64,000 bases of DNA from Eledone cirrhosa (GCA_964016885.1 OZ024759.1:15562001-15626000), one strand, 5' to 3'; counted from the stretch's first letter, positions 1 through 34,986 are shown. Numbers and translations are program-made. Notes: generated by a model not told the origin, from the sequence alone.

Positions 1-699
1 AGTGCAGTTTTAAATCAACATTTTATTTGATGAAAACACAAATGTTATTGCATGATGATATTTGTTTTTGAAATGCGCATAATAAAATACATGGAACTCA
101 TTTAACCATCTTTTGATCTTATATATTATGTATACTCCAGTCCTACAAACTGTAGAGTGCTTCTTATCCGATATCTGCATTGCTTTATTGTACTACAATA
201 AAACTCACCTCCTACATATATATATATATATATATATATAAGTTTACCATACTCTCATATTAATATGCATTGTACTATAAAAAAAATCCACCCACATCAA
301 TATTTCGAATATCATAAAGGATAGGAATATTCATTTAGTTATTTTATTTATACATATATATTCATACGCATATACACACATATCCACATAAACATATAAT
401 CATATGTAAATATATATGTATTCATACACATATACATACATAATCATACACATATTCATGTATATACGTGTTCATATTTACATATATATATAGGAGGGTG
501 CGATATGTGTGCGTATAATGATTTTCTCCCCTTCGTATTTATATTTTGTATACAGAGAAAACGAAAGTGAATGGACAAACATGCGGGAAACGAAACAAAA
601 ACACAAAGGATAATGGCGGGAGATAGTAAAGAAGAAAATGTAGTTAAAAAATTATCAACAATACTTGTATAAAAGATAATAAAAACATCTATCTAGTTA

Positions 700-1563
700 A
701 TCAATATAAATACATATATATATATATATATATACACATACATACATATATAATTATATGCACGTATGTATATATATACACATATATACACACATGTTTA
801 TATATACATGTATATATATATATATATATATATATATATATACATATATACACATATACATATATACACAAATATACATATATATATATATATATATATA
901 TACACATGTATATATATATATACATATATACATATATACACATATACATATATATATATATAATTATATACAGATGTATATATATATACATATACATATA
1001 TATGTGTGTGTGTGTGTATATATATGTATATATATATATATATATATATATATATATATATATGTGTGTGTGCGTGTGTATATGCATATATATATAGATA
1101 TATATATGTATATATATATATATATATACATATATAGATATATATATACATACATATATATATATATATATATATATATACATATATATATATATACATA
1201 CATATATATATATATACATATACATATATATATATATACATATATATATATATACATATACATATATATATATATACATATATATATATATATACATATA
1301 TATATATATATATATATATATACATATATAGATATATATATACATACATATATAGATATATATATACATACATATATATATATATATAGATATATATATA
1401 CATACATAGATATATATATACATACATATAGATATATATATATACATACATAGATATATATATACATACATAGATATATATATATACATACATAGATATA
1501 TATATATACATACATAGATATATATATACATATATATATATATATATATATATATATATATAT
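700..1563. repeat. (TA)n/(TACA)n microsatellite expanse
   Basis: Visible dinucleotide/tetranucleotide repeat. Similar tracts at ~9500-10900, 22990-23985, 24165-25610, 29270-29735, 30800-31335, 58430-59340 and 60930-61990. Confidence 0.98.
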
Positions 1564-1650
1564 CCATATCTCGGTCCTGTTGAACATTCTTCCCAGTCCT
1601 AAAAAAAAAACAGCCATTGGGAGTGACGGCAAGAGGTTATTGTTCTAGGA

Positions 1651-1815
1651 ATTGATCAACAAAGCTATTTCAATCACGGTAGAAATATCGATTACTATAT
1701 CCAATATTCTTCGGAATTCTTCAATGCCAAAATATTTCATAAAAATGCAAATCAAAGGTAACTGGTTTGTGACTCTCTTCACAAGAATTCTTTGATTCCG
1801 CAGCTCAATGACGTT
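1651..1815 (+). pseudogene. Possible decayed Penelope-like GIY-YIG endonuclease C-terminus
   Basis: One frame reads ...FNHGRNIDY...NAKIFHKNANQR*LVCDSLHKNSLIPQLN, loosely like the PLE endonuclease tail pattern (H...NAKIL...R...ESL.I...P.LN). Contains an internal stop. Weak, by-eye similarity only. Confidence 0.3.
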
Positions 1816-1867
1816 TTAGTTGTGGAGAGAAGATAGATGAGACAGAATTGGAAAAGACAATAAAACC

Positions 1868-2650
1868 TCAATGCATAAGCATGCATACAGATACACGCTT
1901 TCTCTCCCTCACACACACACACACAGATATATGTGTGTAAAAGGATATACACATATGCATGCATATATATATATATATATATATATATATATATATATAA
2001 ATATACACATATTGACATTCGTGTATATATACACATATATACATAGGTTATGCATAAGCATGCATACACATACACGCTTTCTCTCCCTCACACACACACA
2101 CACACACACACACACACACACAGATATATGTGTGAAAAAAGGATGTACACATATGCATGCATATATATATATATATAAATATACACATATTGACATTCCT
2201 GTATATATACACATATATACATAGGTTTATACGTGCATATGTTTATATATGCATGTATATACATATACATGCACACATATGCATGCATATATATATATAT
2301 AAATATACACATATTGACATTCGTGTATATATACACATATATACATAGGTTTATATGTTTATATATGCACGTATATACATATACATGCACACATATGCAT
2401 GCATATATATATATATATATATATAAACATACACATATTGACATTCGTGTATATATACACATATATACATAGGTTTATACGTGCATATGTTTATATATGC
2501 ACGTATATACATATACATGCACACATATGCATGCATATATATATATATATAAATATACACATATTGACATTCGTGTATATATACACATATATACATAGGT
2601 TTATACGTGCATATGTTTATATATGCATGTATATACATATACATGCATAT
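1868..2650. repeat. Minisatellite, ~120-180 bp unit embedded in TA repeat
   Basis: Unit aatatacacatattgacattcgtgtatatatacacatatatacataggttt... recurs at ~2000, 2178, 2301, 2425 and 2551. Confidence 0.92.
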
Positions 2651-3426
2651 ATATATATATATATATATATATATATATATGTATATACGTATATGTATAT
2701 ACATGCATATATGTGTATATACGTATGTGTATATTCATGCATATATATATATATATATATATATATATATATTTATACACATTACATTTCAGTGAGCTAT
2801 GTGTATCCACGTAAGGGTTTCTCTCTGGTCATTCTCATTTCACTAGATTGCAAATAATGTTACTTGTTCATAAATAAATATCTATACATATATATACACA
2901 TATATAATATATATATATATATATATATATATATATATATATATAAGATTTTGCTATTATATATACATATATAGAAACATACTAACATATATATATATAT
3001 ATATATATATATAAATATACAAGTCGTTGATATTATATTTACAATGATATAAACATACATACATATATATATATATATATATATATACATGTGTGTAAGC
3101 TCTTCTCTGATACTTGTACCTATATTAGTATTATTTATATTATTTATATTATTATTAGTTTCCTTTTTATAATATATTTATATATTTTAGGGAAATATAA
3201 ACGATACCCATATCCATAATCGATTATATCAAACAGATAGATTTCCCTTTCAGAAAATAGAAAAGTATGCAAAAACATATATATAATATAAGTAGAAATG
3301 GTATTTAATTTGTTGGACGTCCGACAAATATAACTGTTTATAACTGATCTAGAGCAATCAACTGTTTACTGGAGTAAATATTCAATCATATTAAATAAAT
3401 GGAAACTTTATTTATAAAACAATTTT

Positions 3427-32128: not shown

Positions 32129-32710
32129 TATATATATATATTTATATATATATATATATATATATGCGTATATATATATGTGTGTGTGTGTGTGTGTGTG
32201 TGTATATATATATGCGTATATATATATATATATATATATATATATATGTGTGTGTGTGTATATATACACATATATATGTGTGTGTATATATATATGTGTG
32301 TGTGTATATATACACATATATATGTGTGTGTATATATATATGTGTGTGTGTGTATATATATATATATATATATATATATATATGTGTGTGTGTGTATATA
32401 TATGTATATATATATATATATATATATATGTGTATATATATATATATATATATATATATATGTGTGTATATATATATATATATATATATATGTGTATATA
32501 TATATATATATATGTGTGTATATATATGTGTGTGTGTGTGTGTAGAAGTTCTATTTAAATTGTTGGTATACAACAAGCAAATATTTTTGTAACTGATATA
32601 AAGCACTCAACAAAGTATTGGAGTAAAAATACTATCCGGGAGTTTCCAACAGAAATGGTCGCATTCTTTAACGGTATGTCAATATTTATTTATAAAACTG
32701 CATTATATTA

Positions 32711-32775
32711 TATTTTATCTGATGAAAGCACACCATAATTTAACTTGGTGTCCTTGAAATATGTATAATGAAATA
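32711..32775 (+). ncRNA. Type I hammerhead (family A variant with compensatory stem II changes)
   Basis: tattttat CTGATGA AAG c ACACCA taatttaact TGGTGT c CTT GAAA TATGTA TA atgaaata. Confidence 0.88.
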
Positions 32776-33089
32776 AATATGGTTTTATAAATATAGTTTC
32801 CATGTGTTAATATATCGTATATATATATATATATATATATAAATGTGTGTGTGTGTATGGAGAATAAGTATGTGAAATGTGTGTATATATATGTGTATAT
32901 ATATATGTGTGTGTATATATATATATATATATATATATATATATATATATATGTGTGTGTGTGTGTGTATATATATATATATATATATGTGTGTGTATAT
33001 ATACATGTGTGTATATATATATATGTATATATATATATATATATATGTGTGTGTATATATATATATATATATATATATATGTGTGTGTG

Positions 33090-33901
33090 TGTGTAAATAT
33101 TATATTAATGGACCTGCGGCGCTGCAAATGGGTTACATATCAAAAAGTTTGTCCTCATCAGTGGCCTTCCAACCGTCGTAGGCATTTCGTCGCATTAAAG
33201 GCCATATACCTCAGGTTGGTGCGAGCAACGGCTAAAAAAAGTCGTTGGGACACGTAAATAAAGGGGACGCTAGGGTTAACAAACAAAATGGTTTAAGCAA
33301 CAGAAAGTGATGAAAAAGAAAGAAACAATTCCAGTTTTCTATGAATATAAATTCGGTGGAATCGTGAACGAGAGAATAAAGACATCTAACCTGGTTGAAA
33401 TGTGAGCAAGGAAGGAATTTCGCACAGGTCTAACGGGAGGAAGAAGGGGTCTGGTCTGCGAATTCGGTAAACATAAGTTCTGAGAAGTCGCAGACGAGAG
33501 AGAGAGAAAAAAAATTCATACCGGCTTGACAAGTGCCCCGCGAGAAAAGGATTACGGACAGGTCAAACGGGAAGAAAGGGGAGGAGGAGAGGTAGTGACA
33601 GAGAGTGAGTGAGTGAAAGGTGAGGAAGAGGCTAACAGAGAGAGAGAGACTGCTAGAAAGGGTAAAGACACAAAGAACGAAACAGACTGGTGGCAGCGGA
33701 GGAAAAAATATATGTGTAAATATGATAATAATGGAGCTGCGGCGCTGCAAATGGGTTACATATCAAAAAGTTTGTCCTCATCAGTGGCCTTCCAACCGTC
33801 GTAGGCATTTCGTCGCATTAAAGGCCATATACCTCAGGTTGGTGCGAGCAACGACTAAAAAAAGTCGTTGGGACACGTAAATAAAGGGGACGCTAGGGTT
33901 A
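33090..33901. mobile_element. Unclassified partial-tandem repeat, ~620-bp unit, ~190-bp terminal direct repeat
   Basis: 33090-33278 is nearly identical to 33713-33901. The element is embedded in TG/TA microsatellite. Confidence 0.75.
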
Positions 33902-34208
33902 ATATATATGTGTGTGTATATATATATATATATATGTGTGTGTGTGTGTGTATATATATATATATATATATTAAAAAAAAGAACGATCGACTTTCGTCAA
34001 ATCGGACCGAGGGAACAATGTTTCCGTTGGTCTTTCCAATTGCTAATACTATCTATTGGTCGCAACTCCAGGTAGAAGGAGCAACGTGAAATAAAGTGTC
34101 TTGCTCAAGGACATAACGCATCGCCTGGTCCAGGAATCGAACTCACAACCTTACGATTGCGAATCCAATTCTCTAACCACTCAGCCCCACGCCTTCATAT
34201 ATATATAT

Positions 34209-34986
34209 GTTATTCCGGGTTGAATCGGAGGTAACCACAGAAAGTAAGATACTCAATACATTGCAGAGTATAAAAGTTTTAATATAGATGAGATTCTACA
34301 GGACTAGAACTGTTTCATTCTTTAGAAATCATCAGGAATCTGGGTATCAAAAAGTAAGTATGGTATTTATAGGTCTCTTTAAGTGGTAGGGAGTGGGATG
34401 GGTGTAGGTCATTGGTTGATAGAAAAGGGAATTCATTAAAAGCTAATTCTTCAAAGCTATAGTTTATTTTTAGAGTAACAAAGGCAGAAAGAATTCTATA
34501 AACAAATTCAGGATGGGGTGCCCCTCCTTATTTTTAAGTTTCTCTTAAGCTAACAGGTCTCGTTAAGATCAATGGGGGTCAGTCATGGTTGATGGATTTA
34601 AAGGAAAGGGAGTTTCTTTAAAAGCTAAATTCTTTAAGGTGACAAATGCCTAGAGAATTCTGTAGACAAATTCAAAATATTGAGTGCATATCATACTATT
34701 ATCTTCAAATTTCCCTTAAACTATTCAACTATATGCCAAAAATCAACAGACACATTCACAAACACCCACACATACATATATATATATATATATATATATA
34801 TATATATATATATATATATATATATATATATATATACACACATATGTATATATATACATATCTCCCTACCCTCTCCTACCACTTGAAGAGACCTATAAAT
34901 ACCATACTTATTTTTTGATACCCAGATTCCTGATGATTTCTAAAGAATGAAACAGTTCTAGTCCTGTAGAATCTCATCTATATTAA
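34209..34986. mobile_element. Family D inverted pair with ~470-bp spacer
   Basis: Arms 34279-34396 and 34868-34986 are near-perfect complements. CTGATGA tttctaaagaat GAAAC lies at 34329-34335 (minus) and 34930-34936 (plus). Confidence 0.82.

Follow-up and report, generated by a model that had tools for sequence, protein, structure and literature searches.

Penelope-like retroelements (PLEs) of the Hydra clade have in common their protein diagnostics, (TA)n targets, a type I hammerhead in the pseudo-long terminal repeat (pLTR), an optional tail and an inverted, truncated partner, as described by Craig et al. 2021 (PMC8557442). A tail on one end only is the known layout of PLEs (PMC8557442). 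For the Poseidon PLE of Anolis, Frangieh et al. 2024 (PMC11167929) reported internal starts of the reverse transcriptase (RT) on sense RNA at two sites bracketing the tail, with starts at +111-118 and RNA needed to +172, that is, 3' of the start; the protein cleaves both target strands and is a predicted dimer. The one-ended tail and the inverted PLE pairs have been open for two decades, and the single in vitro study left the RNA signal unidentified. The DNA analysed here is a 64,000 nt stretch of the Eledone cirrhosa genome (GCA_964016885.1 OZ024759.1:15562001-15626000; hereafter the window), in which an initial annotation, made from the sequence alone, had noticed a bulged hairpin shared by hammerhead-bearing repeats. 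Sequence comparisons support the view that this motif is a covarying, putatively cis-acting hairpin of PLEs, and tie it to the Hydra clade. The clade itself is known and the elements are additions to it; neither tails nor internal initiation is new.

The full pLTR is ordered as hammerhead, A/U-rich patch, first hairpin (hp1), spacer, A/U-rich patch, second hairpin (hp2) and start of the open reading frame (ORF). Both hairpins follow the consensus RCTC-(paired stem-loop)-TH-GAGYRC. The closing helix has 4 bp (RCTC/GAGY) in place of the 5 bp originally described: family H has C.A as its outer pair (16297, 19477), the base preceding the helix is freely variable in metagenome elements, and the right arm runs on as unpaired RC(T). 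GCTC/GAGCAC is the clade-wide form, and ACTC/GAGT is the usual variant in the E. cirrhosa genome, where A-U replaces G-C in most copies of hp1. Among instances selected partly for pairing, the closing pair is G-C in 31 and A-U in 7.

Pairing was examined in loci from metagenomes and metagenome-assembled genomes (MAGs). An alignment of 40 homologues led to 96 loci with 51 segments upstream of the ORF start, 43 of them non-redundant. The search used sequence anchors only and did not demand pairing, so that the pairing test is not circular. Anchors were present in 36 of the 43 non-redundant Hydra pLTR segments and in two copies in 21; the controls gave 3 (antisense), a mean of 0.85 with a maximum of 4 (shuffles) and 0 of 170 (ORF-internal segments). 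The upper stem had been said to vary freely while remaining paired, and this was borne out: the first upper pair is formed in 55/56 cases (40 C-G, 15 T-A) and the next ones in 38/52, 29/33 and 18/26, although these counts, like those for the selected instances, take no account of phylogeny. The bulge in these segments is fixed at 2 nt (TT 39, TA 10, TC 8), and other bulge registers failed, with the first pair formed in 1/57, 1/57, 10/56 and 16/52. The inner length between the arms ranges from 6 to more than 40 nt. Closing helices found by a general descriptor comprised 77 GCTC and 2 GCAC (GCAC/GTGC) in sense pLTR regions versus 3 antisense; the helix sequence itself is therefore constrained, with rare compensated variants.

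All 12 hairpins first cited in the window were found at the coordinates given for them. The refined pattern gave 12 matches at 11 sites against 0.59 expected, and 0 of 100 shuffles scored as high. In the 3.0 Gb genome (1,796 contigs), the original pattern had 176,810 matches versus 55,687 with the reversed control; (TA)n followed 34-71 nt downstream in 19 of the first 29 genome matches. Each of the 12 cited hairpins lies 42-76 nt upstream of a same-strand (TA)n or (CA)n, compared with 9% (1203/13168) of random non-repeat positions. Families A, B, D and H of the window and K of the genome show no mutual DNA alignment except one 28-nt antisense match, and are thus not one alignable family. The hammerhead said to be attached on the same strand was recovered in part: a regular expression found a hammerhead-like core upstream in 5 of the 12 (133, 4770, 7896, 22654, 34250), and the others are 5'-truncated or have variant cores. 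Three further matches of such expressions were set aside as chance or apparent chance, namely a hammerhead core at 18453 and hairpin patterns at 6222-6241 and 21090-21107 (one of the 11 sites).

The window copies are pLTR fragments, and no Hydra ORF lies within the window; parent elements were found elsewhere in the genome. Among 20 stretches upstream of motif matches, two (L130 and L131) have family H downstream of a PLE ORF, continuously so in L131. A Hydra-type ORF stands upstream of family H hp1 in L131, and one also lies downstream of hp2 in each of the families H, A and K; the repeats of family A are the pLTR belonging to an ORF of the Hydra clade. Family H is young and abundant, with many open frames of 784 aa, some in full tandems. 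Four full tandem units of this family with open frames, at a period of about 3542 nt, occupy G000:C1:91475598-91486659. The second intact family, K, has an open frame of 830 aa. The H, K and A ORFs share RWR, an RWK-like N-terminal motif, and DKT replacing DKG. Those of H and K also have a divergent RT4(B), a C-terminal GIY-YIG, a CxCX5C linker, and CxxC and CxH near the C end; the CCHH motif is absent from their endonuclease (EN) on reading of the translations. H and K thus show every protein hallmark published for the Hydra clade. The Pfam match to GIY-YIG is faint (E 0.069), and the family A ORF was followed only to the thumb region. Insertion at (TA)n, a hammerhead in the pLTR, a tail and an inverted partner were all seen in the parents H, K and A.

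The hammerhead of family H has a variant core and was not recovered as a hammerhead by folding, and Rfam hammerhead models had no match in the window or in 7 Hydra loci. Hammerhead-like folds with a UUGANAA variant core and a long stem II were seen by eye, and missed by minimum free energy (MFE) folding, in family H (L131:6020-6105) and in the pLTR of a Neptune-like family (L080). In a quick tree built without published Hydra references, all 22 motif-bearing ORFs split from 5 other PLEs of the genome with support 100. Hydra-clade proteins of the sample are 30-72% identical. A model of a Hydra protein (predicted local distance difference test score 90.8) had TERT as its best, weak structural match (E 9e-9, template modelling score 0.32). 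We infer from motif, ends and target that families B and D, and those at 134, 15025, 15204 and 18454, belong to the same clade.

Autonomous Neptune-, Poseidon- and Nematis-like PLEs were considered as the source of the motif and rejected: several have two ends and tails, and none has the motif. It occurs in 0 of 7 junction segments of other PLEs in this genome (Neptune, Penelope/Poseidon, Nematis, Naiad and Chlamys set), three of which are shorter than 400 nt, and whose clade labels we take from linker motifs. The RCTC/GAGY motif is also missing from a young Poseidon-like PLE (L100-L129), which has an ORF of about 900 aa, two 3' ends and, overlapping the start of the ORF, a tail of about 45 nt. 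Among the sequences compared, the motif is specific to the Hydra clade. Viral contigs yielded no relatives. Nineteen Hydra-clade loci (L257-L275) were seen in bacterial MAGs and symbiont assemblies, and are probably host contamination.

Hairpin-bearing copies in the window are accompanied by inverted, 5'-truncated partners that stop just before the hairpin. Inserted ends are of two kinds: (TA)n begins 4-9 nt upstream of hp1 at a short end, and at the same distance upstream of hp2 at a long one. A tally over 8 hairpins from 5 families, which admitted starts from -16 to +2 and left out 9 ends with a CT stutter and 44 unclassified matches, found this spacing of 4-9 nt between the start of the TA run and the helix in 123 out of 147 distinct copies ending in TA. 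An alignment-based tally for H, K and A placed 122 of 133 TA-ended ends at hp1 or hp2, 4 inside the tail and 7 earlier. The ends are bimodal and fall at the two A/U-rich patches; positions -10 to -5 before the hairpin are 73-91% A/T. TA bases at the junction are common to element and target, so the exact join can only be bracketed, mostly in an interval that includes -6 or -5. Eight TA-ended ends in 7 metagenome or MAG loci begin 7-9 nt before a hairpin.

The PLE tail corresponds to the interval between hp1 and hp2, which is 78 nt in H, 94 nt in A and 169 nt in K; tails here measure 60-170 nt, versus 30-40 nt in the published Hydra clade (PMC8557442). The second hairpin never forms part of the copied long end; it can be seen at read-through junctions alone, and such junctions revealed it for H and K. 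Because the metagenome ends lie just before hp1 or hp2, an unseen hp2 was predicted beyond the long ends in this genome. For family A it was found at a single offset in 28 of 29 pattern matches (control 0), with the Hydra ORF next; for family B its left arm, and only that arm, is at a fixed offset in 5/5. An apparent ORF start inside the family A tail was rejected, the ATG coming after hp2. A regular-expression match 86 nt after the family K stop (L138) was likewise dismissed, being variable and in the middle of the untranslated region; the real hairpins of K are of the GCTC form. The visible hairpin, hp1, marks the short end, and the long end is set relative to hp2, just beyond the copied part. 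The spacing of 40-70 nt between hairpin and element end, earlier read as the geometry of the signal, is a by-product of this arrangement. The accompanying suggestion of a promoter element gained no support, TATA-like boxes being seen upstream of the hammerhead.

The proximity of hp2 to the coding region raises the question of a translation or RNA-packaging signal beside the start codon, with ends set solely by the A/T-rich patches. Measured to the ORF start in the metagenome loci, the gap is about 74-108 nt from the end of hp1 and about 13-56 nt from that of hp2; the 13-33 nt seen for hp2 in most of these elements would suit such a role. It is nevertheless extremely unlikely: hp1 is equally conserved though far from the ATG, the distance to the ATG varies (about 60 nt in H) as the offset to the ends stays constant, and further TA-rich patches of the tail go unused, the K tail having an internal TA run but just 1 TA-ended end inside it versus 31 at the hairpins.

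Of 34 inverted pairs, 33 combine a long and a short end, all 27 tight ones among them; were the ends independent, P would be about 2e-5. This strict pairing fits one RNA used twice better than two free RNAs, and so tells against a processing model in which cutting or termination of the transcript some 6 nt upstream of a hairpin leaves two RNA species for ordinary 3'-end priming. A processing signal would equally be expected to give a fixed offset, and hp2 does lie outside the copied part; Poseidon, on the other side, initiates internally without cleavage (PMC11167929). We regard processing of this kind as distinctly improbable. At the short ends of family K, 9 of 15 copies have (CT)4-17 between element and (TA)n (L312-L324, L168), whereas read-through and long copies have only CTCT at that place. 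The stutter may possibly reflect RT slippage at initiation; later growth of the microsatellite is also possible.

The reading that we favour, and consider probable on the sequence evidence, is that each hairpin on the element RNA serves as a dock for the RT, placing it so that copying begins just 5' of that hairpin. The GIY-YIG domain would open the (TA)n target. TA microhomology would then let the 3'-OH of one target side anneal to the patch that precedes hp2, and the other side to the one preceding hp1 on the same transcript, so that the RT would start on the A/U patch 5' of each hairpin of the sense RNA and the two target ends would use different hairpins. Synthesis of both cDNAs would proceed 5'-wards, and a join where each is truncated would produce an inverted, tail-out pair in which one end alone has the tail. 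Recognition by the protein would fall on three features, namely the near-invariant CUC/GAG helix, the 2-nt bulge beginning with U and the 3' RC, whereas the upper stem would need no more than to pair. Docking agrees with Poseidon in that RNA 3' of the start site is needed there (PMC11167929).

Several observations weigh against docking. The hairpins are weak, with region z-scores of -0.6 to -1.8; MFE folding joins hp1 to hp2 in 2 of 5 two-hairpin regions (L283, L194) and mispairs hp1 in L180, and the upper stem of family A hp2 has only 1 bp. A search for hp2 beyond the family D long end gave 4 unrelated matches, and in families D and B it was the observed end itself that served to define the long class. 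There are exceptions to the pairing of long with short ends, namely L020 (long and long) and the MAG locus L262, outside this genome, with short ends on both sides; moreover, most loci were found via hp1, so that short-short inverted pairs are under-sampled. Only 5 of the 12 cited instances, of families A and H, are tied directly to a Hydra ORF, and no RNA run was listed as containing the element. Microhomology is assumed here, whereas in Poseidon the priming had no homology to the cut DNA (PMC11167929). Finally, wobble pairs and folding energies do not single out a strand of action: G.U pairs number 11 and C.A pairs 7 (p 0.24), and of 67 hairpins 39 fold better as the antisense strand and 18 as the sense strand.

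The strand results bear on two further explanations. One is a resolution at the DNA level, in which the RT copies past the hairpins, single-stranded cDNA folds into the hairpin, and the A/T-rich patch beside it is cut by the GIY-YIG endonuclease ahead of the join to (TA)n. The antisense strand folds at least as well as the sense strand, and PLE endonucleases favour AT-rich DNA. Craig et al. attributed the tail to 'EN-mediated resolution' (PMC8557442), and the Penelope EN of D. virilis required the tail for recognition (as cited in PMC11167929). The in vitro RT start sites of Poseidon alone, however, match both genomic ends (PMC11167929), and an inner length of 6 to more than 40 nt excludes fixed-geometry binding of double-stranded, though not of single-stranded, DNA. 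Such resolution is unlikely, if less so than the other alternatives. The second is a telomerase-like template boundary, in which the RT copies antisense RNA and stops a few bases short of the hairpin, the ends being stop sites. The same strand results leave room for it, and it draws on TERT as the closest solved fold and on an earlier proposal that inverted Penelope structures arise by self-priming with an antisense template (PMC3846280). It is opposed by the hammerhead and ORF on the sense strand, by the extra step that (TA)n joining at a stop site requires, and by the activity of sense RNA in vitro for Poseidon (PMC11167929), and we hold it to be very improbable. Returning to docking, we propose more tentatively, leaning slightly against it, that the hairpin may be a portable RNA signal for 'start copying here', conserved in cnidarians, molluscs, arthropods and echinoderms alike; with a pair of them on one transcript, a dimeric telomerase-related RT could prime both sides of the (TA)n break, in each case at a fixed distance of a few bases 5' of a hairpin.

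In the window, family A has hp1 of long ends at 3354-3375 (-; decayed, element 3285-3511, hammerhead 3443-3483 on the same strand), 22653-22674 (-; 22582-22807, hammerhead 22742-22780, also -), 29190-29210 (+) and 32603-32624 (-). Inverted partners of the second and the last lie at 22877-22998 (+; hammerhead and short end) and 32681-32825 (+; short-ended). A further family A hp1 with one base deleted is at 32045-32064 (+); this hairpin and the decayed one at 3354 were missed by the initial annotation. Short-ended copies of the family with a hammerhead and no hairpin occupy 25657-25812 (+) and 28306-28444 (+). Family B (4610-4871) has hp1 with a long upper stem at 4771-4822 (+) and a non-canonical hammerhead-like core at 4681-4696. 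Family D long ends are 7825-7953, with hp1 at 7897-7917 (+), a type I hammerhead core at 7826-7848 and an inverted partner at 7764-7821 (-) whose short end stops before hp1, and 34206-34390, with hp1 at 34249-34269 (-) and a hammerhead at 34313-34335 (-); a short-ended copy lies at 34875-34986 (+). Family H, whose parent is an intact Hydra-clade PLE with an open frame of 784-786 aa, has hp1 at 16298-16323 (+; 16230-16371) and, for the long end 19424-19515, at 19476-19501 (-), with an inverted, short-ended partner at 19548-19600 (+). The remaining hp1 copies are at 134-160 (+), in a long-ended pLTR fragment with a decayed hammerhead core at about 27-73 and (TA)n 57 nt downstream; 15025-15055 (+), with a 3-nt bulge, and 18454-18480 (+), each of a further family; and 15204-15232 (-), decayed and within a short inverted pair (15194-15367).

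More hammerhead- or pLTR-like repeats beside (TA)n and without a hairpin were seen at 7590-7720, 8271-8420, 13150-13490, 19257-19400 and 51288-51525; they are either short-ended Hydra copies or members of other clades. The window also contains a 13-bp satellite of about 927 copies (39243-51082), tandem units of 90-101 bp with tRNA-like GGTTCGATTCC boxes (36786-38330), and fragments, some of them inverted, of a LINE-like RT region (19709-20435, 26066-27220, 55160-57520).

The motif is legible by eye in 4 of 6 published Hydra consensi, those of a coral (Hydra-2_Amil), a sea cucumber (Hydra-1_Ajap, Hydra-2_Ajap) and, in variant form, a copepod (Hydra-1_Crog); in Hydra-1_Ajap it occurs twice upstream of the ATG, and the two consensi without it end before the tail. 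A search with five right-arm 9-mers, in which line breaks may conceal matches, gave 4 of its 7 matches in the Hydra file of 212 rows and 3, without a left arm, in 6,367 Naiad/Chlamys rows. The available text of Craig et al. 2021 (PMC8557442) makes no mention of the hairpin ('stem loop' has 0 matches), of its duplication or of a fixed offset to both ends. Rfam gave 0 matches in the window at the gathering threshold and 3 chance matches (E 2-3), none on the motif, in 7 Hydra loci. As the initial annotation had supposed, the motif was thus not found annotated, and the repeated hairpin, the fixed two-end offset and the long-with-short rule are undescribed in the parts of the literature covered; subscription papers, Repbase or Dfam notes and figures could mention them. 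The motif is a real, clade-wide cis-element, apparently undescribed.

Across the Hydra clade, a short covarying motif allows both ends to be predicted to within a few bases, and with it curators could locate the true boundaries of Hydra elements. Hairpin docking, if true, would explain the PLE tail and the inverted insertions by one mechanism, the ends of an insert could be set by hairpin placement, and the (CT)n stutter of family K would point to telomerase-like slippage at initiation. Tools for RNA-templated insertion could use the hairpin, if portable, to define ends. Since telomerase has the PLE RTs as its sister group, how these anchor on RNA is relevant to the origin of template positioning.

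The 3' stem-loop of L2/CR1/RTE LINEs (long interspersed nuclear elements) and of their SINEs (short interspersed nuclear elements) is a small cis-acting RNA hairpin that recruits the RT; in L2/CR1/RTE it is single, lies upstream of the 3' end and is copied into every insertion. The Hydra hairpins differ from it in being two, each downstream of the end that it marks, with hp2 left uncopied. A signal 3' of the end it marks has the opposite polarity. The original proposal of a cis-acting signal of PLEs thus stands as a covarying pLTR hairpin, and its geometry and its analogy to L2/CR1/RTE do not. In the boundary and anchor helices of telomerase RNA and in hepadnavirus epsilon, a protein-bound helix likewise fixes the site of the RT on an internal RNA; the telomerase boundary helix lies 5' of the template and stops synthesis, and epsilon templates from its own bulge with protein priming. 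Non-LTR retrozymes are short type I hammerhead repeats related to PLE pLTRs (PMC7229834; bioRxiv 10.64898/2026.07.22.740005), and the bulged hairpin is not described for them in the available parts of these two sources. Unlike such retrozymes, families A and H are truncated copies of autonomous elements and not separate non-autonomous families. The arrangement proposed here resembles that of Poseidon (PMC11167929), in which two starts flank the tail, 3' RNA is required and both target strands are cut.

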